Shown piece by piece: positions 48,959 to 64,000 of a stretch of DNA of 64,000 nucleotides. How positions within the stretch are numbered: the first letter of the stretch is position 1; each line of letters begins with the position of its first letter. The DNA lies in contig JBBRSB010000019.1 in NCBI GenBank assembly GCA_038245785.1, forward strand, positions 22,972 to 86,971. The letters are read 5' to 3'. The translations under genes were made by a program, and so were the position numbers. The DNA comes from Gloeobacterales cyanobacterium (GTDB lineage: Bacteria > Cyanobacteriota > Cyanobacteriia > Gloeobacterales > PMM-0068). The notes under the pieces were generated by a model. It worked only from the letters and a program-made list of their open reading frames with translations. It had not been told where the DNA came from and ran no database searches.

Positions 48959-49423
48959 ATGCTTGATGTTTTGATTCAAACCAATCTCCATTCGAAAGCA
49001 GCGGCAAAGGAAGCATTCTTGCCTGTAATCCGTGAATTAGTTCGGGCTTACCAAGCTCTATACAATTATTCTGCGCTGCATATCCGTGAACTTGGACTGA
49101 CTCCATCACAGTTCGATGTGATTAGCACCTTGGGCAATACGCCCGGAATGAGCATGAACAAGCTAGGGGAAAAGACACTTATTACCAAAGGGACACTGAC
49201 AGGAATTATTGACCGATTAGAACAAAAGGGCTTTGTTCGTAGAGAAGTACCTGAGGAAAATAGGCGCAGTTTTACCATTGTCTTAACGATAGAAGGAGAA
49301 AAAGTTTTTGAAGAAGTCTTTCCCGCCCACATTGCTTATCTCAAGCAACGCTTTGAAGACCTAAATCCGCAGGAAATGTCAGAGATCCAATCGATGTTGA
49401 AATCCTTGCGCGAACGATTTTAG
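48959..49423 (+). CDS. MarR family transcriptional regulator
   Basis: LTPSQFDVI, GTLTGIIDRLEQKGFV.R, RRS...LT.EG. Confidence 0.92.
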   Translation: MLDVLIQTNLHSKAAAKEAFLPVIRELVRAYQALYNYSALHIRELGLTPSQFDVISTLGNTPGMSMNKLGEKTLITKGTLTGIIDRLEQKGFVRREVPEENRRSFTIVLTIEGEKVFEEVFPAHIAYLKQRFEDLNPQEMSEIQSMLKSLRERF

Positions 49424-49465
49424 AACTTTTAAGACAAACTGCTCACATTGCTTCTGGCTCATAAA

Positions 49466-49494
49466 GTACTAGTTAGAATAGTTCTATGTAGAAC
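49466..49494. promoter_or_regulatory. Tandem palindromic operators, probable MarR sites
   Basis: GTACTAgtTAGAAT followed by the perfect GTTCTAtgTAGAAC. Confidence 0.55.
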
Positions 49495-49546
49495 ATTTAT
49501 AAAATGGAGCTTCCATGATTCAAAACAGCACCGTGAGGGATCAGTC

Positions 49547-50317
49547 ATGAGCGGTGTGCCCAGCATCTTCATCAGTCACGGTTCTCCCATGCTTCCCTTG
49601 GAGGCCAGCTCGGCCCGCGATTTTCTCCAAGGCTTGGGGCAGCAGCTAGGCCATCCTAAAGCCGTGGTATGCATATCGGCCCACTGGTCTACGAATCATC
49701 CCACTGTCACAGGTGCAGCTCATCCTCAGCTCATCTATGACTTCTGTGGTTTTCCGGAAGCTGCCTATAAACTTCAGTACTTCCCGCCTGGAGCACCCGA
49801 ATTGGCGACCCAAGTTACAGATTTACTCAGGAATAAAGGGATCGAAAGTGCGGTAGATAGTTCACGAGGGTTGGATCATGGAGTCTGGAATCCTCTGCTT
49901 TTGATGTACCCAGCAGCGGATGTACCTGTGATCCAACTGTCCGTCCAGACACACTTGGGACCCGCTCATCACTGGGCCGTGGGAGAAGCGCTAGCCCCTT
50001 TGCGTGAAGAGGGCATCCTGGTCCTTGGCAGCGGCAGTGCTAGTCACAATTTGGAAAAATTACGGGCTGCCCCTGCTCCCACCCCTAACTGGGTCAGTGA
50101 GTTTGTGGATTGGTTAACAAACGCAGTAACGGAGGATAAACAGGAAGCTCTGATCAACTATCGGCAACAAGCACCCCATGCTGTCCTGAATCACCCAACA
50201 GACGAGCATCTCCTACCGCTGTTTGTAGCGCGAGGGGCAGGAGGAACTAAAGGAACCTTACTCCATTCCAGCTTTACCCATACTATTCTCAGCATGGCTG
50301 CTTATTCCTTCGGTTAG
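49547..50317 (+). CDS. Class III extradiol dioxygenase (LigB/DODA-like)
   Basis: FISHGSP, ISAHW, RGLDHGVW, GSGSASHNL, HPTDEHLLP. Confidence 0.9.
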   Translation: MSGVPSIFISHGSPMLPLEASSARDFLQGLGQQLGHPKAVVCISAHWSTNHPTVTGAAHPQLIYDFCGFPEAAYKLQYFPPGAPELATQVTDLLRNKGIESAVDSSRGLDHGVWNPLLLMYPAADVPVIQLSVQTHLGPAHHWAVGEALAPLREEGILVLGSGSASHNLEKLRAAPAPTPNWVSEFVDWLTNAVTEDKQEALINYRQQAPHAVLNHPTDEHLLPLFVARGAGGTKGTLLHSSFTHTILSMAAYSFG

Positions 50318-50327
50318 AGGAACTCAA

Positions 50328-52304
50328 TCAATCACTGAGTAAGAAAATCAAAGGCCGCACATCCTCTTCAGCTGTCCATTCCCAATAGCGCACCAGAATC
50401 TGATACACCATCAGTCCGGTTTCTCCCTGGCCAGTAACGATGTAATTCAGGGACTGTTCCGTCATATTTTTACGGGTCAGACCAAGGAAAATAGACACAG
50501 GATCAATCATTTCGCTGACATAGGCAATTGCATTGGCAAGAGCTACCGCTCCGGTCACTTCGATGCAGAAGTCTTCTCCCTCTTGGCGAATTTGTAAGCG
50601 CAGACCGCTTAGAAAGTCACTGCAATCATCGTGCAGAGAGACATGCATAAAGGCAAAGGGATGCTTGGTTGAGTAAAGGCTGCGCAGCTGCTTGGCCTTG
50701 CGTTCACGAGGACCAGGAGCGTTACTAATTAGCGGAACCAGACAGACCTGCTTGCGGCAGAGCTTAGGCCATAGTTCTGCAGACTGCTCATCCATAAAAG
50801 TGATCTGCTCAACCCGTAGTTCCGTCGCTCGTTTTAGACGAGTGCCAATCCCAATCACTAAGACGAAAGCAATAAAACAGCTAGCGATGATCAAGCCATC
50901 GGGGCGTTCCCGGATGTTGTCCAACAGCGTGTAGGTAAAGACCAAGACCATGGCCCAAAAGTAGTAGCTCAGGGCCTTTAACTTCTTGGAGTTGAGGGCT
51001 TGCGCCTCACTCCCAAGAGCCAGGGCAACCGCTACCCCAGCAGAAAGAATCAGCACCAACACGCCCGTAGCGTAAGCACCGCCTTGAGCTTCAACATTGG
51101 CGCGAAAAACAGCCACTACCAGCAAGTCAATCGCCAATAGGGCTAAGACGAGGGGACGACTGTAGCTCACCCAGTTAGGAGCCATGCCAAAACGAGGCAA
51201 GTAGCGGGGGATGAGATTTAATAAACCAGCCATGGCCGAAGCCCCTGCAAACCAGAGGATAGCAATGGTCGAGATGTCATAGACCGTTCCCCAGCCGTCT
51301 CCCAACAACTTATGACACAGGTAGGCGAGGGCGCGTCCGGAGGCTGCTCCTCCACTAGCATAGTCAGCAGGCGGGATAAGCAAAGTCGTGACGAAGCTGG
51401 ATGTCATCAGCAATATGCTCATCAGCACGGCGGCTGTGGTCAAAAGGTTCTGACTGGCCTTGATCCGCCCCTCTGGGGTTGGCTTATTAGCATCATCACT
51501 CCCTCCTTTGATCAAGGGCATGACCGTAACCCCAGTTTCAAAACCACTTAAGCCCAGGGCGAGCTTCGGGAACGTGAGCCCAGCAGCAATCAGAATTCCT
51601 GTCCAATCTCCCTTCAGGGTGAGGGCTTGCTGCCAGTTGGCCCATAGTTCTGGGTGCTTAAAAATTTCCTGAAAACCGACTCCAATCACTATTACATTGA
51701 GCAGGATGTAGGGGATACCGACTGCGACAGCTAGACTGATAGCCTCTCGGAAACCAAACAGAAATACGATTGCCAGTAGGATCAAGAGAACGGATGTGAC
51801 CTGGAACTGAGCCCCTTCGAAGTACGCTTTGGCGAATGGATTACTCACTAAGTGCTCGGCAGCATCGGAAGCCGAGAGCGTCATCGTGATTACAAAATCA
51901 GTAGTAGCAAAACCAATTAATACCAGTACAAAAAGTTTTCCATACCAGCCCGGTAAGAGCTTCTCTAGCATGGCAATCGAACCCTGGCCAATGTATGAGC
52001 GCTTGGCAACCTGGGAATAAATCGGCAAGGCCCCAGCCAGCGTAACCACAATCAGCAGAAGCGTAGCAAGGGGAGAAACCGCTCCAGCAGCGAGCAAGGC
52101 AATTCCTGGCTGATAACCCAAAGTAGAAAAATAATCGACCCCAGTCAGCCAGAGGACGGAATACCAAGGCTGCGTTTTTCCTTCATGGCTGCCGCCGCCT
52201 GGTCCCCCCTCTGTTAACCAACGGCCCAAAGCTGTCTTAGCGGGCGTGGAACCGGGAACAGGTAACAGAGGCAGCGCTTTCGCCGCAGGTGAAGTTGTTT
52301 TCAT
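50328..52304 (-). CDS. APC superfamily transporter
   Basis: WLTGVDYFSTLGYQPG, LGLSGFETGV, QGGAYATGVL; about 12 TM segments plus a cytosolic C-domain. Confidence 0.85.
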   Translation of the reverse strand: MKTTSPAAKALPLLPVPGSTPAKTALGRWLTEGGPGGGSHEGKTQPWYSVLWLTGVDYFSTLGYQPGIALLAAGAVSPLATLLLIVVTLAGALPIYSQVAKRSYIGQGSIAMLEKLLPGWYGKLFVLVLIGFATTDFVITMTLSASDAAEHLVSNPFAKAYFEGAQFQVTSVLLILLAIVFLFGFREAISLAVAVGIPYILLNVIVIGVGFQEIFKHPELWANWQQALTLKGDWTGILIAAGLTFPKLALGLSGFETGVTVMPLIKGGSDDANKPTPEGRIKASQNLLTTAAVLMSILLMTSSFVTTLLIPPADYASGGAASGRALAYLCHKLLGDGWGTVYDISTIAILWFAGASAMAGLLNLIPRYLPRFGMAPNWVSYSRPLVLALLAIDLLVVAVFRANVEAQGGAYATGVLVLILSAGVAVALALGSEAQALNSKKLKALSYYFWAMVLVFTYTLLDNIRERPDGLIIASCFIAFVLVIGIGTRLKRATELRVEQITFMDEQSAELWPKLCRKQVCLVPLISNAPGPRERKAKQLRSLYSTKHPFAFMHVSLHDDCSDFLSGLRLQIRQEGEDFCIEVTGAVALANAIAYVSEMIDPVSIFLGLTRKNMTEQSLNYIVTGQGETGLMVYQILVRYWEWTAEEDVRPLIFLLSD

Positions 52305-52573
52305 AATAAACGTTCTACTTCGGCTGAATCGAATCTACTTTCTTTAACGTACCGGATTCTGTTCCTCCGCAAACAAACAACAGAGTTCCACAGGCCTTGA
52401 GTCCTATGTCCATGCCTTAGATTTGAGGTGGTTAAATCTAAATTGCAGAGGCCAGAATACCCGCTGGAGTAGCTTTGCAATACATCAGTCTCCAAACATG
52501 AAGAGCGTATTCTTGGATCAAGAATAGTGAGTATACTATTTTAAACATTAATTACACATCGCAATCATCAAAC

Positions 52574-53461
52574 TCAGCTATGGCCGCCGCCATATAGAGG
52601 AATTCTGTTTATTGCTTTAGACACAGAAATATAGCGTTTTTGCTGTTGATAGGTTGTCCATAGAAGAGAACAGCCAAATATCAGGGTGGAGAGCAAGACA
52701 ATACTGGCCCCAGACGCCACATCAAAGTAATAGCTTAGATAAATGCCGACGAAAGAAATTCCTGCCCCCAAAAAGCTAGAAATAATCATTAAGTGGCCAA
52801 ACTTATTCGTCAACAAGCGAGCGATAGAAGCAGGAATCACTACCGCCGAGATAATCAAGGTTACCCCTAAGACTTGCAGGGTAGATACCAAAAGAGTAGC
52901 CAGCATCAAAGCAAACAGTGTATCCATAAAAAAGACTGGCACTCCGTGGACTTGGGCCACCTCTCGGTCAAAACACCAAAACAAGAGCGGTCTATAAAAA
53001 ACAAAGACTAAGCTCAGGAGAACCACGGTCACCCCGGCCACAATCCAGACATCACTGGGGGCAACGCCCAAGACATTGCCGAAGAGGGCCGCTTCAAAAT
53101 TCTGACTAAACTTACGATAGGTGCTGATCACGGCCACACCGAGTGCAAAACTAGCCGTGGTCACGATACCAATCGCCGCATCAGAATAGACCCGTCGAGC
53201 TGTCAAATACTGAATCAGAAGAGCGGCCCCGAAACCCCAAATCCCAGACCCAATATAGAAATTCAAGCCCAATACATAGCTCAGGACAGCTCCTCCCAAA
53301 ATGGCATGGGAAAGACCGTGGGCAATATAGCTCATCCGCCGCGTAGTGATGTACACGCCCATCACGCCGCAGAGGAGGCCCGACAGAACACCTACCAGGA
53401 GGGCACGGGTAAAAAATTCATATCGAAATGGTGTAGCGAGTAGATCTAATACTTCTGTCAC
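52574..53461 (-). CDS. Mn/Zn-type metal ABC permease
   Basis: MSYIAHGLSH, DAAIG, LFGNVL. Confidence 0.92.
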   Translation of the reverse strand: MTEVLDLLATPFRYEFFTRALLVGVLSGLLCGVMGVYITTRRMSYIAHGLSHAILGGAVLSYVLGLNFYIGSGIWGFGAALLIQYLTARRVYSDAAIGIVTTASFALGVAVISTYRKFSQNFEAALFGNVLGVAPSDVWIVAGVTVVLLSLVFVFYRPLLFWCFDREVAQVHGVPVFFMDTLFALMLATLLVSTLQVLGVTLIISAVVIPASIARLLTNKFGHLMIISSFLGAGISFVGIYLSYYFDVASGASIVLLSTLIFGCSLLWTTYQQQKRYISVSKAINRIPLYGGGHS

Positions 53462-53482
53462 AGGTCCTATCCTTAGATTTTT

Positions 53483-54295
53483 TTAAAGCAAGACTTTAGG
53501 CAAATTACTCTGCATTTTGTGACGCAGGGTCGTCATTTCCTGGGCAATCAGAATCCGGTCACCCTGATGGAAAACAACCATGTCGGCCCCAAATGTTCTG
53601 GACAAATTTTCTGCTGTGAATAGGTCCGACGGCTGGCCCTGGGCAATCAAGCCATGATTGAAACAGACCACCCAAGGCAGGTGGGTGGCCACAGAATTTA
53701 GATCATGGGTGGAAAGAAGAATCGTCAATCCCTGCTGGTTGAGATCTGCCAGCAAATGCAGGAGTTCATGCTGGATATTCATGTCGGAACTGGCGGTCGG
53801 TTCATCCAAGAGCACGATATCGGGCTCTCCGACCAAGGCTCTAGCCAGAAAGACTCGTTGCTGTTGTCCACCCGAGAGCGTACCAATATGCTGACGGGCT
53901 ACATCAGCTACTCCGACCCGGTCTAGCAAGTCACGGGCAGCCGCTCTGTCTTTGCTAGAAGGCCACGGCCAAAATTTTTGCTGGCGATAGCGGCCCATCA
54001 TCACCACTTCTTCAGCCGTCACGGGAAAAGACCAGTCCACATTCTCTATTTGTGGTACGTAGCCGACGCCCGCCAAAGGAGTACCCGGTTTAATCGCCTT
54101 ACCGCGAAAGCGGACTTCTCCCTCCCAAGGAGCGATGAGGCCCAGAATTGCCTTAATCAGGGTAGTTTTGCCACTGCCTGACGGCCCAATTAGCCCAGAA
54201 AGCTGACCAGGATAGAGCCTCAGATTCACTCCTTCGAAAGTGACTTCATGGGCATAGCCACAGGTTAAATCATCCACTTCGAGTAATGGTTGCAT
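53483..54295 (-). CDS. Metal ABC ATP-binding protein
   Basis: GPSGSGKTT, GYVPQ, LSGGQQQR, LDEP. Confidence 0.93.
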   Translation of the reverse strand: MQPLLEVDDLTCGYAHEVTFEGVNLRLYPGQLSGLIGPSGSGKTTLIKAILGLIAPWEGEVRFRGKAIKPGTPLAGVGYVPQIENVDWSFPVTAEEVVMMGRYRQQKFWPWPSSKDRAAARDLLDRVGVADVARQHIGTLSGGQQQRVFLARALVGEPDIVLLDEPTASSDMNIQHELLHLLADLNQQGLTILLSTHDLNSVATHLPWVVCFNHGLIAQGQPSDLFTAENLSRTFGADMVVFHQGDRILIAQEMTTLRHKMQSNLPKVLL

Positions 54296-54301
54296 GGGGC
54301 A

Positions 54302-55375
54302 CTATTCCTTTTTGGAATTAGAAGTTGTCGAAGCAACGGCAGGACCAACTACATTGCTTGGATCGAGGGAATCCGCCAGTTTCGGATTGCCCCCCAGATT
54401 ACTAGAAATGATACGGAGATTATTCGCCATCATTCCGATGTAGGTATGCTGAGGATTTTTATTCTCTAAAGCCAGGGCAGACCCTTCACCAGGCAATTCA
54501 TCATCTGCTGTATTGGCCGTTTTGACCTTAGCTTCGCGGCTGATTTGCTCTTCTACTTTGCTGGGATACACTTCTGAGCCAAAAATCGCAGGTACCCCTT
54601 CTTTTCGTACCTGATCGATCAAACGGGCAACTTCTTTGGCCGAAGGTTCTGCGAAATCAGAAGGCTGAATCGCCCCAATTACTTGAAAGCCATACTCTCT
54701 CGCCCAATACGCCCAGGAATCATGATAGGTAAGCAGTTTGCGATTCTTAGCAGGAATGCTAGCCACTACAGTACGAGATACCTTATCCAAACTCTCTAAG
54801 CGCTTTAGGTAGCTCTTGAGATTGGCTTCGTAATAGGACTTGCCCTTAGGCTCTAGGGCGCTCAACTGTTGCGTAGCCAACTTGGCATAGACTTCGGCAT
54901 ACTTAGGATTGACCCAGAGGTGTGGATTGGGCTTGCCACCAGACTTAGGAAAGCTGAAATCATAAAGCCACTGCTTCTCCGTGATCGTATTGCTACCTAA
55001 TTCGTAAATTTTTGTGCCCTTGGGCTTAACAGAATTAGCCAGCTTTTCTGTGGGGGCCTCTAGTTTCAAGCCATTCACAAGAATTAAATCTGCTCTTGAT
55101 AAAAGCTGAGAGTCTGAAGGTCTAGGCTCAAAAGTATGAGAATCTGTTCCCTCAGGAATAATTCCTTGGACTTCAACCCGATCTCCGGCAATATTGCTGA
55201 CAATATTAGTGATTGGAGCTACGGTTGTAACTACTAGTAACCTCTTCTGAGGTAAAGCCTCAGAAGACTGGGCAATCATCACTGATCTTGAAGAAGGAGC
55301 TGCCAGAGCAGCAGACTGCATGCTACTAGGCACCATAGCCAGGGCAAAAGCTACAAATGATAGGATATTGTTCAT
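54302..55375 (-). CDS. Metal ABC substrate-binding protein (ZnuA/MntC cluster A-I)
   Basis: DSHTFEP, NPHLW, YHDSW; no His-rich loop. Confidence 0.92.
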   Translation of the reverse strand: MNNILSFVAFALAMVPSSMQSAALAAPSSRSVMIAQSSEALPQKRLLVVTTVAPITNIVSNIAGDRVEVQGIIPEGTDSHTFEPRPSDSQLLSRADLILVNGLKLEAPTEKLANSVKPKGTKIYELGSNTITEKQWLYDFSFPKSGGKPNPHLWVNPKYAEVYAKLATQQLSALEPKGKSYYEANLKSYLKRLESLDKVSRTVVASIPAKNRKLLTYHDSWAYWAREYGFQVIGAIQPSDFAEPSAKEVARLIDQVRKEGVPAIFGSEVYPSKVEEQISREAKVKTANTADDELPGEGSALALENKNPQHTYIGMMANNLRIISSNLGGNPKLADSLDPSNVVGPAVASTTSNSKKE

Positions 55376-55707
55376 ACAACCTGAACTTTCTTGATGGGCT
55401 TAGGGTCTTCTATCGAAGGTACTGCCTCCTATCCTACTGCTGTAGAAACTTAAAGCAAGTCTTAACGCTTATGGAAGAAAATCGTAAAGATCCCCTAGGA
55501 AACGCCAAAATAGGTGCAAAAAAATAAATCCTTGTAACAACTTCAAAGAGTATTTGAAATCACAAGGCCAATCACCATAAAACATCCAGTCTCGATTCTA
55601 TGCATCGGCGTAAACCTAAAAGGATCCGCATTATGCTTATCAGAGATTTGATTATTTACGCGATCTTTGATTGTTTTCCTTAATATATATTTTCTAGAAT
55701 GCGTTAA

Positions 55708-55727
55708 ACCTGTACCAAAGGACAGGG
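55708..55727. promoter_or_regulatory. lux-box-like operator 1
   Basis: ACCTGTACCAAAGGACAGGG; 19/21 identical to 61748-61768. Confidence 0.7.
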
Positions 55728-55820
55728 ATCTGAGACACTCATCAGAATTGAATATAGTCGTCTGGGTAAGCGTACGATGACACCTGAAGCCAGATGGGTA
55801 TAAGTGCAGGAAGGCGAACA

Positions 55821-56528
55821 ATGACGCAAACAAAAGGGCGGCTATATGGATTGGGGATTGGGCCAGGCGATCCGGAACTGTTAACACTCAAGGCTTATAG
55901 GATTTTGACTTCGGTGCCGGTCATTGCTTATCCCACCCTGGAAAGCGGTAAGGCTCTGGCACGAGCGATCGTTGCTGATTTTATTCGTCCAGAGCAGATT
56001 GAACTTCCGATGCCGCTCCCCTTCAGCACAGAGCGGTCAGCACAGCCTTACTACGACATAGCGGCTGAAAATATTGCTCAATGTCTAATAAAGGGGCAGG
56101 ATGTGGCCGTTCTGTGTGAAGGAGATCCGATGCTCTACGGCTCGTTTATGTATATTTTCAATCGCCTCTCTGGACGCTTTCAAACGGAAGTCGTGCCGGG
56201 AATCTCTTCGACCTTTGCCAGTGCTTCTATGCTCGGTGCTCCGCTTACCTACGGCCATGATGTTCTGAGCATTATGCCTGCCATCCTAGATGCAGCAACT
56301 TTGAGCAGTCGCCTTGCTGTTGTCGATGCAGCGATCATCATCAAAATAGGTAGACACTTCGCCAAGGTCCGCACGGTGCTGGAGGAATTAGGCTTACTTC
56401 CACGAGCGCTGTACATCGAACACGCCACCATGCTCAGTCAGAAAACCCGTCCGATCGCCGAGATTGAACCTAACGAAGTGCCCTACTGGGCCATCATTCT
56501 CATTCCCAGCCAAACGGAACCGCAGTAA
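55821..56528 (+). CDS. cobI: Precorrin-2 C20-methyltransferase
   Basis: GIGPGDPELLTLKA, EGDPMLYGSF, VPGISS. Confidence 0.92.
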   Translation: MTQTKGRLYGLGIGPGDPELLTLKAYRILTSVPVIAYPTLESGKALARAIVADFIRPEQIELPMPLPFSTERSAQPYYDIAAENIAQCLIKGQDVAVLCEGDPMLYGSFMYIFNRLSGRFQTEVVPGISSTFASASMLGAPLTYGHDVLSIMPAILDAATLSSRLAVVDAAIIIKIGRHFAKVRTVLEELGLLPRALYIEHATMLSQKTRPIAEIEPNEVPYWAIILIPSQTEPQ

Positions 56529-56587
56529 AAACGTTTACTCTTATTTCAGATCAATCCCTTTCTTTCTCCTGATTCCAATTGGAGACT

Positions 56588-57685
56588 ATGGCTCGTTCAG
56601 GTTACACACTGCCCGTTTTCGCGGTTGCTGCTGCCAAAGCAGCCCTGTTGCACTTGCTAGAAGCTGGCAAGGCTCGGCAGTCGGTTGAGATGAGTCTGCT
56701 ACCAGGAACGGCTGATATTCCTATCGATCAGGTTGCTGCACTCGATGCGCAGAGTGCTCTAGCGATTACGCTCAGCGATCCGGGAGATAATCTCGATTTG
56801 ACCCGCCATACTCCGATTTGGGCATGGGTGACGGTTTCAGAACGGCAGTCAGAAGCCTTAGTCTTGCAAGCTGGAGAAGGATTGGGTAGAACAGCACTGG
56901 GCGAGCCCGCCATCTATAGCTACGCTCGTCGTCTCTTTGAGGCTAATCTCCTCTCTCTTATTCCTACTGAACAAACGGTCACCGTGACAATCACTCTGCC
57001 CGAAGGTCGTCAATTGGCGAAACGCACTTCCAATGAAGCTTTTGGCATCTTGGAAGGGCTATCATTATTAGGCACGAGCGGTATTTCTCGACCGCTATCA
57101 GCGGCAGATCATCTGGAAGAATTCCGGCAAACTCTCCGCAAAACGGTCAAAATGCGTTCCCATTTAGTATTTTGCATTGGCAGCAGCGGTCAACAGGTCG
57201 CTCAACGCTTAGGCATTCCAGCGGATGCGATCGTGCCGACAGGCAATTGGATCGGAGCCCTACTTGTAGAAGCTGGACTCTATCAAGCAAAATCTGTCCT
57301 GCTGCTGGGCTATCAAGGAAAGCTGGTCAAACTAGCCGGAGGTATTTTTAATACATCGAGCCATCTAGCTGATGCCAAGTTGGAAATTATCAGTGCGTCG
57401 GTGGTTGCCGTCGGTGGAGATTTATCGGCGGTACGGTCGGTTTTAGAAGCTGAGACTGCTGATGCTGCTTATCAAAACTTAGTTAACTTGGGACTGGCGG
57501 AAGCTGTATTTACGCATCTTGCCCAAAAAATTAGCCAGAAGTCACAGGCCTATATCCAGAAATACGCCAATATAGACCTGACCATGGGCACTATCTTATT
57601 CGACCGCAAAGGTCAGATTATCAGTCAAGATACACAGGCGACTCAGTTGCTCGCCCCCCTGCCCCCCAATTCTGGGGGGTTCTGA
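56588..57685 (+). CDS. cbiD: Cobalt-precorrin-5B C1-methyltransferase
   Basis: SGYTLPVFA, SDPGDNLDLT, RTSNEAFGILEGLSLLGTSG, GKLVKLAGGIFNT. Confidence 0.93.
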   Translation: MARSGYTLPVFAVAAAKAALLHLLEAGKARQSVEMSLLPGTADIPIDQVAALDAQSALAITLSDPGDNLDLTRHTPIWAWVTVSERQSEALVLQAGEGLGRTALGEPAIYSYARRLFEANLLSLIPTEQTVTVTITLPEGRQLAKRTSNEAFGILEGLSLLGTSGISRPLSAADHLEEFRQTLRKTVKMRSHLVFCIGSSGQQVAQRLGIPADAIVPTGNWIGALLVEAGLYQAKSVLLLGYQGKLVKLAGGIFNTSSHLADAKLEIISASVVAVGGDLSAVRSVLEAETADAAYQNLVNLGLAEAVFTHLAQKISQKSQAYIQKYANIDLTMGTILFDRKGQIISQDTQATQLLAPLPPNSGGF

Positions 57686-57718
57686 CGTAATTCAAAGCCC
57701 CCCAAAGTTGGGGGGGCG
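57652..57718. repeat. Double-hairpin dispersed repeat overlapping the cbiD 3' end
   Basis: GCCCCCCAATTCTGGGGGGT and GCCCCCCAAAGTTGGGGGGG, flanked by CGCCCCCC/GGGGGGCG. Confidence 0.75.
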
Positions 57719-57764
57719 GTTCGCCAGGATATATAAGTAACTTCTAATCGATGAGCCGTTGTAG

Positions 57765-58976
57765 ATGCAGAAATGGTTGTCCGTAGTTGGAATTGGTGAA
57801 GATGGGTTAGCTGGTTTAAGTGCGACCGCTTGCTCGCTCGTCAAGCGTGCAGAAGTGATTGTCGGTGGGGAACGTCATCTAACGATGCTACCAGCCGACG
57901 ATCCACAAGTTTCCCAGGAAAAACTGATCTGGTCTTCTCCGATCGCTACCTCCATCGATGAAATTCTGCAGCGACGCGGTCAGTCTGTGTGCGTGCTCGC
58001 CAGCGGTGACCCGATGTGGTTTGGCATCGGCGTTACCCTCACTCGTACGATTCCCCTATCCGAAATGATCATTATTCCAGCCCCTTCCTCTTTCAGCCTT
58101 GCGTGCGCTCGATTGGGATGGGCTCTGGCAGAGGTGGAAACGCTCAGTCTATGCGGTCGTCCTCCTGCCTTGCTCCAAGCTGTCCTCTATCCTGGAGCAC
58201 GGTTGCTGATCCTTAGTGAAGGGAAACAAACTCCTGGCATAGTTGCGAAACTCCTCACCGACTGTGGCTATGGGAGCAGCACTGTAAAAGTTTTGGAATA
58301 CATGGGTGGTGAACGCGAAAAGATTACCGAAGGGACCGCAGCATCCTGGCCAGCGATAGACTCAGCCGACTTAAATACGATCGCGGTTGAGTGCCTGGCC
58401 GAACCGGAGATTATTCCTCTCACTGGACGCACAGGGCTTCCTGATAGTGCCTATCACCACGATGGACAGTTAACCAAACAAGAAGTACGGGCCGTGACGC
58501 TAACCGCTCTAGCTCCTATTCCAGGGCAGTTGTTGTGGGATGTGGGCGCTGGATGTGGCTCCGTCGCCATCGAATGGATGCGCAGTCATTCCCGCTGTCG
58601 CGCGATCGCGATTGAGAAATCAAGAACGCACTACATCGCAGACAATGCGACGGCTCTCGGTACGCCCAATCTGCACATTGTTGAGGGAATCGCACCGAGC
58701 GTACTCAAGGATTTACCCAAGCCCGATGCGATTTTCATCGGCGGCGGGGTAACGACAGAGGGTGTTTTGGAGACCTGTTGGGCAGCTTTGTGCTCAGGCG
58801 GTCGCCTAGTGGTGAATGTCGTCACGCTAGAAGGAGAGCAGAAACTGTTTGAATGGCATCAGCAAGTCGGTGGGACTTTAACTAGGATTGGGATTCAACG
58901 GGCAGAACCACTCGGTTCTTTCTTAGGCTGGAAACCCATGGCTACCGTGACTCAATGGACTGTACATAAGCCCTGA
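57765..58976 (+). CDS. cobL: Precorrin-6Y C5,15-methyltransferase (CbiE-CbiT fusion)
   Basis: VVGIGEDG, ASGDPMWFGIG, LTKQEVR, WDVGAGCGS, PDAIFIGGG. Confidence 0.93.
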   Translation: MQKWLSVVGIGEDGLAGLSATACSLVKRAEVIVGGERHLTMLPADDPQVSQEKLIWSSPIATSIDEILQRRGQSVCVLASGDPMWFGIGVTLTRTIPLSEMIIIPAPSSFSLACARLGWALAEVETLSLCGRPPALLQAVLYPGARLLILSEGKQTPGIVAKLLTDCGYGSSTVKVLEYMGGEREKITEGTAASWPAIDSADLNTIAVECLAEPEIIPLTGRTGLPDSAYHHDGQLTKQEVRAVTLTALAPIPGQLLWDVGAGCGSVAIEWMRSHSRCRAIAIEKSRTHYIADNATALGTPNLHIVEGIAPSVLKDLPKPDAIFIGGGVTTEGVLETCWAALCSGGRLVVNVVTLEGEQKLFEWHQQVGGTLTRIGIQRAEPLGSFLGWKPMATVTQWTVHKP

Positions 58977-59738
58977 CTAGAGCTTGTCTGTCAACCAGAC
59001 AAGAGCTGTCTCTACACTCGATACCTGTGCTCCTGCTGGCATGATTGGACGCCGAATCATCACCATTGGAAGGCGAAGTTCTCTTGCAGCTAGGATTTTG
59101 GCATAGGTGGCCTCTCCACCACTGTTTTTGCTGACAATAAGATCAATCTGGTGATCGATTAACAAGTGTCGTTCCTGCTCCAATGTGAACGGTCCACGAT
59201 CGTGCAACAGTAATCCATTAGGCATAAGCGTTTGGGGGTCAGGGGAATCAATCGATCGGATCAAGAACCAAAGGTGAGTCAGCGGGACAAAGGGGGCAAG
59301 CTGTTGTCTACCCGTAGTCAGGAACACGCGCTTAGCCGTATCTGGAATGGCCTCCGCTGCCGCTTCAAGGGTATCGACTTCAATCCAGCAATCACTACTT
59401 ACCCTACTCATCGGTTGCCACGCCGGACGAATCAGCATCAGGTGCGGTATTTCGGCTTCTGCTGCTGCTGCTGCCGCATTCCATGAGATTTGGGCTGCAA
59501 AAGGATGGGTGGCATCGATCGAAAAATCAATCTGCTGAGCCTGTAAATATTGGACCAATCCGGCTTGCCCGCCAAAACCACCGATGCGCACAGAACCCGT
59601 GGGAACGGATGGCTGACGAGTCCGGCCAGCCAGGGAAGTAATAACCTCCACGCCCGAAAGCAGAGAAATCTTGGCAGCGAGTTCCAAGGCATCGCCCGTT
59701 CCGCCTAGAATAAGAACCCGTATCATCGGTCTGGCCAT
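58977..59738 (-). CDS. cobK: Precorrin-6A / cobalt-precorrin-6A reductase
   Basis: LILGGT, GGFGG, DATHPFA, SKNSGG, KILAA. Confidence 0.94.
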   Translation of the reverse strand: MARPMIRVLILGGTGDALELAAKISLLSGVEVITSLAGRTRQPSVPTGSVRIGGFGGQAGLVQYLQAQQIDFSIDATHPFAAQISWNAAAAAAEAEIPHLMLIRPAWQPMSRVSSDCWIEVDTLEAAAEAIPDTAKRVFLTTGRQQLAPFVPLTHLWFLIRSIDSPDPQTLMPNGLLLHDRGPFTLEQERHLLIDHQIDLIVSKNSGGEATYAKILAARELRLPMVMIRRPIMPAGAQVSSVETALVWLTDKL

Positions 59739-59819
59739 AGTGGGGATAGTTTTGAGCGATAGATTACTTGGAATTCCATCTCGACCAGCAATTAAACCTT
59801 TAGGACAAGCGCAATACTC

Positions 59820-61187
59820 ATGAGCATCATCATCGCAGGTGAGCGGAGTGGCGTTGGTAAAACAACGGTCACACTAATGCTTTTAACGGCTTTGAGTCGC
59901 CGTAGCCAGAAGGTACAATCTTTCAAGGTCGGTCCCGATTATATCGATCCCATGTTCCATCAAGAGGTGACGGGCCGTGCGTGTCGCAATCTAGACCCTG
60001 TATTGACCTCAGAAGCCTATGTTCAGCAATGCTTTGATCTTCATAGCCAGGATGTTGACTACGCTCTGATTGAAGGAGTGATGGGATTATTTGATGGGGC
60101 GAGCGGAGCAGATGATTATGCCAGTACAGCTCACATTGCCCGTCTGTTAGACCTGCCCGTTATTTTGGTACTGGATTGTAGCCGCTTGTCTCGCTCTATC
60201 GCAGCGATTGCCCATGGCTACTGCACGTTTGATCCTCGTATTCAAATAGCGGGCGTAGTCTTAAACCGAGTCGGCAGTGACCGCCATCTAGAATTGCTCA
60301 CTGATGCGCTGACGCCTCTAAATCTTCCTATCTTGGGTGTACTGCGTCGCCAAGACAGCATCACTATTCCTGATCGACATCTTGGCTTAGTGCCCACGGC
60401 TGAACTTAACAACTTTCACGCATTGACTGAAGAACTCGCGCATCTCGGAGAAACCTGCTTCGATTGGTCAAAGCTATTACCTCTACTCAAACAAGCAACC
60501 AGAAACTCGCCCTTAATCAAATCACCTAAAATCCAAAATTCAGCACCCAAGGTCCGTGTGGCCGTCGCTCGGGATGCCGCGTTCAATTTCTACTATGCCG
60601 ACAATCTTGAACTTCTAGAGCGCCTGGGCGCAGAACTCGTTCCCTGGAGCCCGTTGCGAGATATAAAATTGCCAGAAGATATCCAAGGACTTTATTTTGG
60701 CGGTGGTTTTCCAGAAGTCTTTGCCGCTGAACTGGCGAATAATACTCAGGCTCAGGCTCAAGTGCAAGCGCAGATTCAAGCAGGGCTCCCCACCTACGCT
60801 GAGTGCGGCGGATTGATGTATTTATGTGAGCAAATTATCGATTTTACGGGGCAAGCTCATCGAATGGTCGGCATTTTGCCTTCCATTGCTGTCATGGGAA
60901 AACGGCTCACGTTAGGCTACCGACAGGCCGTTACCATGCAAAACAGCCCTTTCATGGCTCAAGGCACTCAAGTTTGGGGACATGAGTTTCATCGCTCTGA
61001 ATTAACCATAAAACCGAAACAGCCCCTGTTTCGAATGCAAGGCTACGCAGCGAACAGCCTCAAGAAAGAGGAAGGCTGGCAGATTTATCAAGTGCATGCT
61101 TCCTACCTGCATGTACACTTTGGCGCACAACCAGATATTCCCCTCCGGTTTGTGCAGCAGTATCAACGGTTTGCGCGGGGCAGTTGA
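59820..61187 (+). CDS. cobB: Cobyrinate a,c-diamide synthase
   Basis: SGVGKTT, KVGPDYIDP, EGVMGLFDG, RHLGL, AECGG, GHEFH. Confidence 0.95.
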   Translation: MSIIIAGERSGVGKTTVTLMLLTALSRRSQKVQSFKVGPDYIDPMFHQEVTGRACRNLDPVLTSEAYVQQCFDLHSQDVDYALIEGVMGLFDGASGADDYASTAHIARLLDLPVILVLDCSRLSRSIAAIAHGYCTFDPRIQIAGVVLNRVGSDRHLELLTDALTPLNLPILGVLRRQDSITIPDRHLGLVPTAELNNFHALTEELAHLGETCFDWSKLLPLLKQATRNSPLIKSPKIQNSAPKVRVAVARDAAFNFYYADNLELLERLGAELVPWSPLRDIKLPEDIQGLYFGGGFPEVFAAELANNTQAQAQVQAQIQAGLPTYAECGGLMYLCEQIIDFTGQAHRMVGILPSIAVMGKRLTLGYRQAVTMQNSPFMAQGTQVWGHEFHRSELTIKPKQPLFRMQGYAANSLKKEEGWQIYQVHASYLHVHFGAQPDIPLRFVQQYQRFARGS

Positions 61188-61212
61188 GCGGTAAGCCCTC
61201 GCCCTACCTCAT

Positions 61213-61446
61213 CTAGCCCTTTCTCGCATCGATTTCTAGATAACCAATTAAGCCTGCCCATAGAGCAGTCTGAGCTACTGCATTTAGGCGCTGAAAGCCG
61301 ACAATAGGGCCAGCAACTTTATCTAGACGAAGGGCTCTAATGCCAAACTCAGATGCTGTGCCAATACCAAGTTCGGCAGCGTAAAAAGCCTTGAGTCCGT
61401 TAATCAGGACAGATTTTTGTACATCGGAAACATTCGAAGTATTCAT
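61213..61446 (-). CDS. Small hypothetical protein, possibly membrane-associated
   Basis: 77 aa, GGAG RBS, two Gly/Ala-rich apolar segments. Confidence 0.55.
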   Translation of the reverse strand: MNTSNVSDVQKSVLINGLKAFYAAELGIGTASEFGIRALRLDKVAGPIVGFQRLNAVAQTALWAGLIGYLEIDARKG

Positions 61447-61482
61447 TGTGAAGCTCCGTGAGTGAGTAGCACCGCTATCGTC

Positions 61483-61514
61483 TTCAAAAGCCCTGCTGTT
61501 GCAGGGCTTTTGAA
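61483..61514. terminator. Hairpin downstream of hli
   Basis: TTCAAAAGCCCTGC-tgtt-GCAGGGCTTTTGAA, perfect 14-bp stem. Confidence 0.85.
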
Positions 61515-61529
61515 AGTTGTTGAAATGTT

Positions 61530-61691
61530 CTACATGAGGCCAAGACGGTGAAGCAGACCTTGCTTAGTGGCAGACTCTAGTACAAGCAAGATGACGAAAC
61601 CGAGCATAGCTAGACGCCCATTCCAGATTTCTGCTTGAGGAGTAAAGCCAAATATGAAAGAGTTACGACTCTCGGAATTTTCACTGTTCAT
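61530..61691 (-). CDS. hli: High-light-inducible protein (HLIP/SCP), 53 aa
   Basis: Not in ORF track. MNSENSESRNSFIFGFTPQAEIWNGRLAMLGFVILLVLESATKQGLLHRLGLM, with the ExxNGRxAMxG Chl-binding motif. Confidence 0.95.
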   Translation of the reverse strand: MNSENSESRNSFIFGFTPQAEIWNGRLAMLGFVILLVLESATKQGLLHRLGLM

Positions 61692-61749
61692 GACAAGAGC
61701 TCAAACTGGTTTACACTTCTCAACATATCTTTACCAGACGCAGGATGAA

Positions 61750-61769
61750 ACCTGTACTAGAGGACAGGC
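61750..61769. promoter_or_regulatory. lux-box-like operator 2
   Basis: ACCTGTACTAGAGGACAGGC, 58 nt upstream of the hli ATG. Confidence 0.7.
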
Positions 61770-61938
61770 CAATTAGAAGTTTTGCAAAATCAAGTGATGC
61801 ATAGAAATTTAGCGAAAGAATACTGATGGAGAATTCTTAATCAAAAGCGCTGGAGGTTCTAGCTATAGTACTTACTTCCCTGGATAGGCCAAAAGCTGGT
61901 TTATACTGCTTAATGTATTTTCATGAAGCTTAAAATAA

Positions 61939-61958
61939 ACCTGTACTGTTCATCAGGT
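61939..61958. promoter_or_regulatory. lux-box-like operator 3
   Basis: ACCTGTACTGTTCATCAGGT, 58 nt upstream of the OCP ATG. Confidence 0.6.
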
Positions 61959-62016
61959 GTTTTTTTTGGTGGGCATGGAAAATAGACTTAGTTAGAAAAC
62001 TCTAGAGGCTTCAGTA

Positions 62017-62988
62017 ATGTCACTTACCATTGAGTCAGCCCAAGAGATCTTCTCGGGAAGAGGTCTTCCCAGTAGTATCCCCGTCATCCTCGCTGAGTTT
62101 GAAAAGCTTAGCCTTGAAGACCGACTCGCCCTTCTCTGGTTTGCTTATACCGAGATGGGAAAGTCGATTACTCCTGCAGCCCTCGGTGCTGCCAGCATGA
62201 CCTTAATCGAAAGACTGCTGAATGATATCAAGGGCATGCCTGCCAATGAGCAGACCCAGGCCATGATTGACCTAGCAAGCCGCGCAGATACCCCCGTTAG
62301 CCGGACCTATGGTTACTTTAGCGCCAATATCAAACTCGGATTCTGGTACCAACTCGCTGAATGGATGAAGCAAGGGCTTGTCGCTCCAGCTCCCGCCAAC
62401 TACGAAATGAGCAAGGATGCTACTGCTGTATTCGAAGCTATCAAAAAAGTCGATGGTGGACAGCAGATTCAGGTATTGCGCGACATCGTTCTGAATATGG
62501 GCTATAAGGATAACGTCACTCCAGCCGTAGTCCCAAAGGCATACGAATTCAAGTTTGAACGCACTGAGCCGACAGTCAAGGGCCTTTCTGTTGAGGGTGT
62601 CACTGAGTCCGCCCCACTTGCCTATTTCGAGGCCATGAACCGCGATGATTTCGAGGCAGCAATCGCGCTCTTCGAACCAAATGGTGCCTTGCAGCCTCCT
62701 TTCCAAGAACCGATCATCGGCACAGAGGCGATTGCCGCCTACATGCGCTCTGAAGCACAAGGGCTGAACATGATGCCGACGCGGGGAATCACTGAGTACT
62801 CCGCTGACGGCTCTAAGAAACTGAAGATTACAGGCAAGGTCCAAACTCCTTGGTTTGGCGTCAACGTCGCCATGAACATTGCCTGGCGCTTTGCCCTCAC
62901 TCCCGAAGGCAAGATCTTCTTTGTTGCCATTGATATGCTGGCTTCTCCCGAAGAACTTCTGAATCTCCGCCCACCTAGCTACAAATAG
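62017..62988 (+). CDS. ocp: Orange carotenoid protein (likely OCPx/OCP3 clade)
   Basis: NTD LALLWFAYTEMG, KLGFWY, GQQIQVLR; NTF2-like CTD LQPPFQEPIIG, GKVQTPWFG, IAWRF, ASPEELLNL. Confidence 0.96.
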   Translation: MSLTIESAQEIFSGRGLPSSIPVILAEFEKLSLEDRLALLWFAYTEMGKSITPAALGAASMTLIERLLNDIKGMPANEQTQAMIDLASRADTPVSRTYGYFSANIKLGFWYQLAEWMKQGLVAPAPANYEMSKDATAVFEAIKKVDGGQQIQVLRDIVLNMGYKDNVTPAVVPKAYEFKFERTEPTVKGLSVEGVTESAPLAYFEAMNRDDFEAAIALFEPNGALQPPFQEPIIGTEAIAAYMRSEAQGLNMMPTRGITEYSADGSKKLKITGKVQTPWFGVNVAMNIAWRFALTPEGKIFFVAIDMLASPEELLNLRPPSYK

Positions 62989-63006
62989 TTAATCTTTCTT
63001 TTTGAG

Positions 63007-63036
63007 GAGGTTGTCTGTGAAGGCAGCCTCTTTTTT
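63007..63036 (+). terminator. Intrinsic terminator after ocp
   Basis: GAGGTTGTCT-gtga-AGGCAGCCTC followed by TTTTTT. Confidence 0.8.
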
Positions 63037-63112
63037 CTCAATTTCAGACATTGCCCTTTTATTCCTAAGCTGATTCTTTTTGTATCGGGAAAACCCCACC
63101 CCTGGCACAATC

Positions 63113-63841
63113 CTATTTCTCTTCATCTGTAAATTGTGACTGGATTAGTTGAAAGCGTTGGTTTACGCCATACTTCTGAAAAATATTTCCCAGGTGATAT
63201 TTAACAGTTCTGACCGTGACATTTAACTGGTCCGCGATCTGCTGGTTACTCTGTCCTAGAGAGAGTTGTTGAAAAACTTCCTGTTCTCTGGCTGTAAGCT
63301 TTTGGTAGGCATACTGAGTTTTCAAGCGGGCTAAGTGTAGGCTTGCAGCACTACAGAGTAGATGGAGCAAGCTGATTTCTTCAATCGTTAGCTTCTGGCG
63401 GGTGAAAAAAGCGACAACACCCAAACATTGGTCTTGATAAAGCAGAGGGTAACCAGCAAAGGTTTGGAGATTATGTTTTTGTACCCACCAAGGGTCTCGA
63501 ACCCAGGGTTGCCCATGTAAGTCCTGCGCCCAAAAAGCTTGGCGCTTCTGAGCAATCCAACCCATTTTGAAACTTCCCAGAGGGATGCGGGCGAATCGGC
63601 CTGTGAGTACGGTAGAGGCTCCAGAACTGGCTATCAATTCTAAGGTTTGACTCGCAGGTTCGAGATACCACAAACGAGCCAGAGCAAGACCATAGTGTTC
63701 CACCAAATTTTGGGTGAACAGGCGAGCCGCTTCTTCCAAATTTTGTTGATAGGAAAGAAGATGGATAAGCTTCTCTCCTTGCTCACTCCAGCGAGCAAGC
63801 TGAGGGCGGGAGCATTGGTGATTTTGTGACTGATTAGACAT
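63113..63841 (-). CDS. GAF domain + LuxR-type HTH transcriptional regulator
   Basis: GAF: ARLW...LELIASSG...GWIAQ...FAGYPL...LGVVAFF. HTH: LTAREQEVFQQLSLGQSNQQIADQLNVTVRTVKYHLGNIFQKYGV. Confidence 0.92.
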   Translation of the reverse strand: MSNQSQNHQCSRPQLARWSEQGEKLIHLLSYQQNLEEAARLFTQNLVEHYGLALARLWYLEPASQTLELIASSGASTVLTGRFARIPLGSFKMGWIAQKRQAFWAQDLHGQPWVRDPWWVQKHNLQTFAGYPLLYQDQCLGVVAFFTRQKLTIEEISLLHLLCSAASLHLARLKTQYAYQKLTAREQEVFQQLSLGQSNQQIADQLNVTVRTVKYHLGNIFQKYGVNQRFQLIQSQFTDEEK

Positions 63842-64000
63842 GGCAAAAGTATAGCTTCTACCCCTTGTATGTTGAGAGTGAGCGGTAAACCGATAACCCC
63901 TTGATACTGGATATCGTGGCTGAGCCTAGGTTGCCGCTTACTCGCTCTTGAACCCGAACAGTCGCTTGGGGCCATGACCCCGTATGAGCAAGGGCGGGTC

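Follow-up and report, generated by a model that had tools for sequence, protein, structure and literature searches.

A stretch of 64,000 nucleotides (nt) from the genome of a Gloeobacterales cyanobacterium (assembly GCA_038245785.1, hereafter G000; positions 22972-86971 of contig C19), which is called the window below, carries the divergent photoprotection genes hli and ocp, a gene for a GAF-LuxR regulator, a segment of cobalamin synthesis (cob) genes and a znuABC-like metal-import operon (Table 1). A 20-nt palindrome occurs three times in the intergenic DNA of this locus, and its copies are termed box 1 (between znuA and cobI), box 2 (upstream of hli) and box 3 (upstream of ocp). The reading that is favored here, with a probability of roughly one half, is that the boxes are copies of an hli promoter-palindrome module of about 75 nt, in which the palindrome would be the operator of a dimeric transcription factor and the GAF-LuxR protein is the predicted binder.

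Table 1. Coordinates of the features at the hli-ocp locus and of related sites (window positions, unless a contig or another locus is named)
Feature	Position	Strand	Remarks
Box 1	55708-55727	palindrome, read on +	ACCTGTACCAAAGGACAGGG; znuA/cobI intergenic region
Box 2	61750-61769	palindrome, read on +	ACCTGTACTAGAGGACAGGC; candidate operator of the hli promoter, conserved
Box 3	61939-61958	palindrome, read on +	ACCTGTACTGTTCATCAGGT; upstream of ocp, weaker copy
hli 5′ untranslated region (UTR) and core promoter	61692..61749	-	near-invariant in 4-sequence alignment
hli candidate -10, TATGTT	61727-61722	-	22 nt from box 2; putative assignment from the sequence
HLR1-like octamer pair	61710-61727		13/16 in the window; overlaps putative hli -10/start
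Left flank of box 3	61884..61938	-	hli core-promoter copy; -10-like TACATT 21 nt from box
Left flank of box 1	55653..55707	-	hli core-promoter copy; -10-like TATATT 20 nt from box
Promoter-like site for cobI, CTGAGA-17-TATAGT	55730..55758	+	3 nt past box 1; 9/12 consensus matches
hli, 53-aa high-light-inducible / small CAB-like protein	61530..61691	-	Pfam Chloroa_b-bind, E 3.1e-5
ocp, orange carotenoid protein (OCP)	62017..62988	+	Pfam Carot_N, E 5.4e-63, plus NTF2
GAF-LuxR one-component regulator, 242 aa	63113..63841	-	Pfam GAF_2 + GerE; convergent with ocp; candidate binder
cobI/cbiL-type precorrin methyltransferase	55822..56528	+	Pfam TP_methylase, E 1.3e-40; first gene of cob segment
cob segment (cobI, cbiD, cbiE/T, cbiJ, cobB, orf77)	55470..61486 (approximate)		missing here in G001, G002, L057
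znuA-type periplasmic metal-binding protein	54302..55375	-	Pfam ZnuA, E 7e-70
znuABC-like operon	52574-55375	-	znuA first; ABC_tran + ABC-3 downstream (Pfam)
Porin box, G000	C13:10322-10339 (L054:1501-1518)		CCTGTACTAAAGCACAGG
Porin box, G001	C338:5090-5107 (L050:1501-1518)		CTTGTACTAAAGGACAGG
Element ends with CCTGTCCTAAAGGACAGG	L040, L042, L043 (G195); L038 (G032): 1501-1518

Sequence, Position and Rarity of the Boxes

The consensus of the palindrome is ACCTGTMCTANAGGACAGGT, with 14 fixed positions, from which box 1 departs at one position and box 3 at two, the right arm of box 3 (TCAGG) being degenerate. The frame CCTGTAC-N7-CAGG was observed three times in the window against an expectation of 0.01, and none of 100 shuffled sequences reached this count. 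In the whole G000 assembly (5,008,344 bases) it has seven matches, where about 2.4 would be expected for 11 fixed bases on two strands; the three remaining exact matches, on contigs C8, C20 and C37, are at the chance expectation. All three boxes are covered by contigs of the DNA runs X2, X3, X4 and X9. The end of box 2 lies 58 nt from the hli ATG (61691) and that of box 3 likewise 58 nt from the ocp ATG (62017), and box 1 lies 332 nt from the znuA ATG. Toward cobI, whose reading frame is open from 55794, box 1 is separated by 66 nt from the ATG at that position and by 94 nt from a second ATG at 55822, where the gene more likely starts. Contigs of DNA from related strains stop or begin around 61949-61978, near a run of eight T directly to the right of box 3 (61959-61968).

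The original prediction, made from the letters of the window, described these features accurately. Its three 20-mers were all found on the + strand where it had placed them, with the CCTG-N10-CAGG frame in common, and box 1 does lie inside the divergent metal-ABC/cobI region. The identity of 19/21 that it gave for boxes 1 and 2 was borne out when both are read with the AAA prefix, its 58-nt spacings were measured again and agree, and a recount of the matches to the Vibrio fischeri lux box, as quoted there, yielded the same 14, 14 and 13 of 20 positions for boxes 1, 2 and 3. Each of its gene names was matched by Pfam, including the GAF-LuxR gene right after ocp. A motif frequent throughout the genome had been named there as a finding that would speak against the proposal; with seven exact matches in 5.0 Mb, the motif is not frequent.

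Conservation of the Boxes at hli and at a Porin Gene

The relatives compared were two genomes of the same genus (G001 and G002) and a metagenome contig (L057). In each of them the hli-ocp interval contains one box, located on the hli side, with the sequence ACCTGTACTAAAGGACAGGT in G001, ACCTGTCCTATAGGACAGGT in G002 and ACCTGTACTAGAGGACAGGT in L057; the G002 box is a perfect 20/20 palindrome and matches the quoted lux box at 15 of 20 positions. When these three loci are aligned with that of G000, hardly any position varies from the hli ATG up to the box, and identity drops sharply just past it; in 4/4 loci the box closes the conserved promoter block of hli on its distal side. Orthologous conservation above that of the surrounding intergenic DNA, as would be shown by an operator, was thus found at hli in all four loci, and also in two of three genomes at the porin gene described below. 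The sites differ from one another mostly in the central 4 nt and at position 7, a pattern that fits, as expected, a putative dimer site. Among 401 genomes of the class, the strict box pattern is near hli in this genus only (one genome for the reversed-pattern control), and its matches elsewhere are inside an open reading frame (ORF; G070), beside unrelated genes (G227), at a contig end (G262) and at the ends of repeated elements (G195 and G032).

Between the box and hli, the -10-like hexamer of the relatives is TATATT, and no good -35 element lies between it and the box. The known regulatory element of hli genes, HLR1, has a consensus of two (G/T)TTACA(T/A)(T/A) octamers 2 nt apart near the transcription start site (PMC6525291), and in Synechocystis, according to the portion of that article at hand, HLR1 sites near the start mediate repression by RpaB in low light. 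An HLR1-like pair scoring 13-14 of 16 is found at the same place in G000, G001, G002 and L057, where the background of scores of at least 13 is 0.11 per kb-strand. The palindrome is a real, non-random and conserved cis element distinct from HLR1, and it probably functions as a protein-binding operator.

Action of the element as RNA, in the form of a 5′-UTR hairpin, an attenuator or terminator, or part of a small RNA, is a very unlikely alternative. The palindrome can be folded as a hairpin, the T8 run follows box 3 and TTT follows all copies on the minus strand. However, the hairpins are weak (-5.4 to -7.8 kcal/mol, z -0.4 to -1.8) and not better than those of shuffled sequences, the terminator scan found none, and there are no compensatory changes, because the sole difference in the stem, A/C at position 7, makes or removes a mismatch. 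Neither a cobalamin riboswitch nor any other Rfam family was detected in 52000-64000 (cmscan, E<=1; one chance-level match to a long noncoding RNA).

A second orthologous site was obtained when G000, G001 and G002 were scanned for the box with one mismatch. It is located about 60-65 nt upstream of the gene for an SLH+OprB porin in G000 and G001, where the box is again the distal edge of a conserved promoter block, with lower conservation upstream of the box, and the -10-like hexamer TACAAG is 21 nt from it. The genes just upstream of the site in G001 encode an FTR1-family iron permease and a small HHH/PsbU-like protein. With at most one mismatch allowed, the forward pattern had 11, 6 and 4 hits in G000, G001 and G002 versus 7, 5 and 4 for the reversed control. 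Further regulon members beyond hli, the porin and boxes 1 and 2 were rejected at this threshold as being within noise, those inspected lying inside long ORFs, and a palindrome at C3:11957 proved to be a hairpin between convergent genes, unrelated to the box.

Boxes 1 and 3 as Copies of the hli Promoter Module

The left sides of all three G000 boxes share sequence in direct orientation. The 50 nt to the left of a box were aligned locally with the hli-promoter flanks, and 1500 composition-matched genomic 50-mers served as the null. The left flank of box 3 scored 20 against the hli flank of G001/L057 and 15 against that of G000 (null maximum 12-14; 0/1500 as high), and the left flank of box 1 scored 15 against G001/L057 (0/1500 as high) and 13 against G002 (null fraction 0.009); the right flanks of boxes 1 and 3 had no significant similarity to the hli flank in the same test. 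An nhmmer profile of the module, whose model included both copies, gave E values of 8.9e-14 for the box 3 copy and 1.7e-13 for the box 1 copy and found only three full-length copies in G000. Because the left flank of hli is shared in direct orientation, boxes 1 and 3 are copies and not independently evolved operators; on these alignments they are lineage-specific copies of one promoter-plus-operator module of about 75 nt. The high identity of boxes 1 and 2 can be explained by duplication of the module, that is, by homology, and not by independent recruitment. The 21-nt core of box 1 has kept 19 of the 21 positions of box 2 and its flanks have decayed to roughly 55-65% identity, which hints at constraint on the core.

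A degenerate hli gene to the left of box 1 was considered and rejected (score 11 versus a null of 9.7 +/- 1.5, fraction 0.2; no hli-like frame). Between box 1 and znuA there is a terminator-like hairpin on the minus strand (55520-55568; -16.2 kcal/mol with flanks, z -2.4), with a U-rich run right after it; the interval that separates this hairpin from the box 1 module contains a 19-codon ORF.

An origin of the boxes as remnants of mobile elements without regulatory role, such as the end hairpin of an IS200/IS605-type element or a miniature inverted-repeat transposable element (MITE), is suggested by the 18-mer CCTGTCCTAAAGGACAGG, which is present at the ends of repeated elements in G195, in three copies with near-identical flanks of which two border an ORF of about 426 aa, and once in G032. 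The flanks of those elements (ttgacatcctc...gattcctacgg) are nevertheless unrelated to those of the G000 boxes, so that an IS605-type element end was rejected. A dispersed repeat or MITE was ruled out by the module profile, which finds just three copies in G000 and no dispersed family, and the site is orthologously conserved in promoters. A mobile-element origin is accordingly highly improbable.

Gene Order in Relatives and the Cobalamin and Metal Genes

G001, G002 and L057 share the order znuABC (-), hli (-), ocp (+); in them znuA abuts hli without the cob segment of about 6 kb between them, and matches of the relatives' DNA jump from about 55380-55402 to 61486. Because the cob segment is absent there, box 1 does not exist in these three loci. 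No box was found upstream of their ocp genes, where only the ribosome-binding region is alike. The CbiD orthologues of G001 and G002 (70-71% identity) are encoded on other contigs in a different gene order, in which cbiD comes after a 275-aa methylase and cbiJ, and no box with up to three mismatches was found in the intergenic DNA near the cob genes of these two genomes. The arrangement of G000 is shared by closer relatives: a DNA contig of run X3 with about 91% identity bridges 59010-63406, and the order with cob beside hli is therefore common to closer relatives and not an assembly artefact. It persists in relatives with about 91-93% identity; the contigs of the RNA runs X11, X13, X14 and X19 come from relatives with about 95% identity.

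The original prediction had proposed that one regulator co-controls photoprotection with B12 and metal supply. In G001, G002 and L057 a box was recovered upstream of hli and none at ocp, and none was found near the cob genes of G001 and G002. What stands of the proposal is a conserved hli cis element and a GAF-LuxR gene next to ocp; the part that does not stand is the set of ocp, cob and metal targets, as sites are not conserved upstream of the orthologous ocp, cob and znu genes. From these comparisons, the proposed ocp/B12/metal circuit is a lineage-specific outcome of promoter-module duplication combined with relocation of the cob cluster, and the proposed link of the boxes to vitamin B12 and metals is weak.

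Among the other genes of the locus, Pfam matches in the cob segment comprise TP_methylase, CbiD, CbiJ and a CobB-type amidase, and a 77-aa ORF (61213-61446, minus strand) and a 658-aa ORF (50328-52304, minus strand), the latter conserved in L057, are without a Pfam match. A MarR-family regulator gene (48959-49423), which together with the following LigB-type dioxygenase gene occupies 48959-50317, is the sole additional gene for a regulator found up to 15 kb away from the boxes.

The GAF-LuxR Protein

The 242-aa protein encoded next to ocp has a helix-turn-helix (HTH) domain of the LuxR/FixJ type at residues 181-234 (GerE, PF00196, E 7.9e-18) and a GAF_2 domain at residues 33-170 (E 3e-12), and is thus a GAF fold fused to a DNA-binding domain without a receiver or kinase domain. 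In its AlphaFold2 model (predicted local distance difference test score 89.7), the GAF domain is followed by a four-helix HTH (helices 184-194, 199-206, 210-224 and 229-237). The N-terminal domain has a classical GAF fold, for which the top Foldseek matches are PtsP and other GAF domains (E 3e-8, TMt 0.83); a TraR chain aligns across the full length of the model, weakly (TMq 0.39). As originally stated, the regulator has no acyl-homoserine lactone (AHL)-binding domain, since Autoind_bind (PF03472) has no match even at E<=10 and a GAF fold occupies its place. An AHL synthase (Autoind_synth, PF00765) was not found in G000, but none was found in 14 control genomes either. The GAF-LuxR protein is not a quorum-sensing receptor.

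Among 40 relatives searched, full-length relatives of the protein (81-84% identity) are present only in G001 and G002, and no further species was added by a public genome collection. L057 represents a fourth locus (83% identity), and a search of 5.8 billion proteins returned only 12 proteins, all at least 78% identical. The gene is convergent with ocp in three of the four loci (G000, G001 and L057), the adjacency in G001 being given by contig ends that overlap by 119 nt at 100% identity.

A CYTH-domain gene (L055:5243-5950, L056:5375-5950) ends no more than 30 nt before the GAF-LuxR start in G001 and G002, the ORFs listed for the two genes in G002 overlapping by 16 nt. The G000 orthologue of this gene (80% identity) is on another contig (C23:1192-1890), and C19 ends 159 nt upstream of GAF-LuxR. 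A conserved near-match to the box at L055:5804, which recurs at the matching place of L057, was rejected as an autoregulatory site, lying within the CYTH coding region.

G000 has a second carotenoid-protein locus (C3:2718-6445; L072), in which the gene for a 189-aa Carot_N protein resembling a helical carotenoid protein is followed by a gene for a 134-aa protein like the C-terminal part of OCP. A response regulator gene of the REC+GerE type (C3 4661-5383) is convergent with these genes and touches them, so that both OCP-type loci of G000 have a convergent LuxR-type HTH gene, and a REC protein and a hybrid histidine kinase are also encoded next to this locus. No box of the type studied here was seen upstream of the C3 carotenoid locus.

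Proposed Mechanism and Alternative Explanations

In the model outlined at the beginning, the box would be located 20-22 nt upstream of the -10-like hexamer (TATATT, TATGTT or TACATT, and TACAAG at the porin gene), and with 6-7 nt from the -10 element to the start its center would fall near -43/-44, the geometry of a class II-type activator. The HLR1-like element over the hli -10 element and start site would add a low-light repression of the RpaB type. Because the site is palindromic, the module copies could also serve the rightward genes, ocp from TAGACT, 24 nt from box 3, and cobI from TATAGT, 25 nt from box 1, and transcription running leftward from the box 1 copy would be terminated by the hairpin at 55520-55568, short of znuA. 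Duplication of the promoter cassette would in this way have enlarged a small photoprotection/envelope regulon in the G000 lineage. The scenario in its fullest form, in which a clade-specific GAF-LuxR sensor of an early-branching genus activates hli and the gene of the outer-membrane porin via a lux-type palindrome and the regulon grew in one sublineage by cassette copying to ocp and the relocated cobalamin operon, is unlikely to hold in all its parts.

Several findings weigh against the model, concerning in turn the operator, its copies and its binder. With regard to the operator, the conserved hli block is unbroken from the ATG to the box, so that conservation alone cannot single out the box, and G001 and L057 hardly differ in the surroundings of the box, so that the four loci count as fewer than four independent witnesses; moreover, G002 did not yield the porin site, its matches starting only within the coding region.

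With regard to the copies, the -10 elements of the copied flanks point leftward, away from ocp and cobI, because the flanks were copied in direct orientation, and duplication may have left boxes 1 and 3 behind as neutral sequence. It is conceivable, if doubtful, that only box 2 and the porin site are functional, that boxes 1 and 3 are neutral by-products of the rearrangement that placed cob between znuA and hli, and that ocp, B12 and metal genes are not co-regulated; such a state of affairs would be compatible with either binder. Besides the leftward -10 elements, it agrees with the lack of boxes 1 and 3 in G001, G002 and L057, with the degenerate right arm of box 3, and with the position of the relatives' cob genes elsewhere, in another order and without a box. 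The promoter-like site for cobI is the sole consensus promoter hit and is weak, because one was found and 1.0 was expected by shuffling; the hit counts of sigma-70 consensus scans equal the shuffle expectation. Neutrality is, however, at odds with the suggested constraint on the core of box 1, with the usable -10-like hexamers 24-25 nt to the right of boxes 1 and 3 and with the retention of the arrangement in the relatives of about 91-93% identity, and the porin site suggests that a box can work with a gene on its right side.

With regard to the binder, the HTH of GAF-LuxR is nearest to NarL-type regulators (LiaR, VraR and VpsT, E about 1e-9), and CviR (E 4.5e-7) and LasR (E 2e-4) follow, so that it gives no indication of lux-box specificity. 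The GerE-domain matches in G000 number 14, which means 13 other candidates with the same HTH type, and other transcription factor families are present too. No box was found near the GAF-LuxR gene in L055, L056 and L057, and in G002 GAF-LuxR is not beside ocp within the 240 and 352 nt that remain at the contig ends. These findings would be accounted for if a real operator were bound by a different factor, either another LuxR-type response regulator or a member of an unrelated family, and GAF-LuxR were next to ocp by coincidence, as might also be suggested by the longer cyanobacterial GAF-X-LuxR proteins, whose genes have no ocp, hli or lux-type palindrome within about 1.5 kb at 17 loci. This explanation is judged improbable without being far-fetched, because the box and GAF-LuxR have the same narrow clade distribution and in 3/4 loci no other regulator gene is as close to the hli/ocp pair as that of GAF-LuxR. 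LexA, which the original prediction had put forward as an alternative binder, is unlikely, because no LexA DNA-binding domain (PF01726) was found in G000, an assembly with 98% completeness, and 10 of 14 control genomes were matched. The lux-type arms of the box and the size and domain layout of GAF-LuxR, which resemble those of LuxR-type regulators that sense a ligand, also speak for this protein. GAF-LuxR is retained in the preferred model as the predicted binder of the box, an assignment whose chance of being correct is slightly short of even.

Significance and Comparison with Known Systems

The combination of a conserved operator other than HLR1 and a candidate sensor-regulator would provide an entry point for direct tests, and the three-copy module illustrates how a regulon can gain members via duplication of a promoter-operator cassette. 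If the model is true, regulon expansion by promoter duplication would have been caught in the act, and lux-box recognition would occur outside quorum sensing; if GAF-LuxR is not the binder, the finding reduces to a conserved promoter element of an ordinary kind, of which two lineage-specific copies exist. No literature on the box or on a GAF-LuxR regulator of hli or ocp was found by a full-text search that covered sources outside subscription journals; in it only RpaB/HLR1 was named for the control of hli, no dedicated regulator of ocp was named, and the early-branching lineages without thylakoids were not treated.

The box resembles the V. fischeri lux box, as both are 20-bp palindromes, and the outer arms ACCTGT/ACAGGT of the box are the arms of the quoted lux box. 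Lux boxes are centered near -42.5, and the putative position of the box here similarly overlaps the place where a -35 element would be. The consensus of CviR is CTGNCCNNNNGGNCAG, which the G002 box would fit. GAF-LuxR, with about 240 aa, also shares with the quorum-sensing LuxR receptors the combination of an N-terminal ligand-type domain and a C-terminal GerE HTH. Unlike LuxR, TraR, LasR and CviR, it has a classical GAF fold instead of Autoind_bind, and its HTH is closer to the NarL type.

The longer GAF-X-LuxR proteins of cyanobacteria (367-503 aa) have the same end domains and about 31-35% identity to GAF-LuxR, from which they differ by a middle segment of 130-250 aa; no described function of theirs was found in the literature search. 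Among described regulators, the one closest to GAF-LuxR in architecture is DfdR of Rhodococcus sp. YK2, an activator that senses dibenzofuran through a GAF-like domain joined to a LuxR HTH (Iida et al., 2009, cited in PMC6099782), the likeness being drawn from the description given in that citing source only. GAF-LuxR proteins of Mycobacterium smegmatis are uncharacterized according to the excerpted text of a preprint (10.1101/2024.03.06.583649). The one-component architecture is common to DfdR, the mycobacterial proteins and GAF-LuxR, but the taxa are unrelated, as are the target genes of DfdR.

Within cyanobacteria, the portion consulted of a 2026 review of redox regulation (PMC13421787) names the LuxR-type regulators PedR and Rre1 and no GAF-LuxR, and NfSrr1 of Nostoc flagelliforme is described in an excerpt of PMC11962455 as a REC-LuxR protein. 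PedR is like the role proposed for GAF-LuxR in being a one-component LuxR-type regulator of light and pigment genes in a cyanobacterium, but differs, by the description in the table of that review, in that only a redox-sensitive cysteine switch is given and no GAF domain. The RpaB/HLR1 system of Synechocystis and Synechococcus acts on the same class of genes, hli, and would be represented here by the HLR1-like pair; however, as described in the cited part of PMC6525291, HLR1 is a direct repeat to which a regulator of the OmpR type binds, whereas the box is a separate 20-bp inverted repeat located further upstream.

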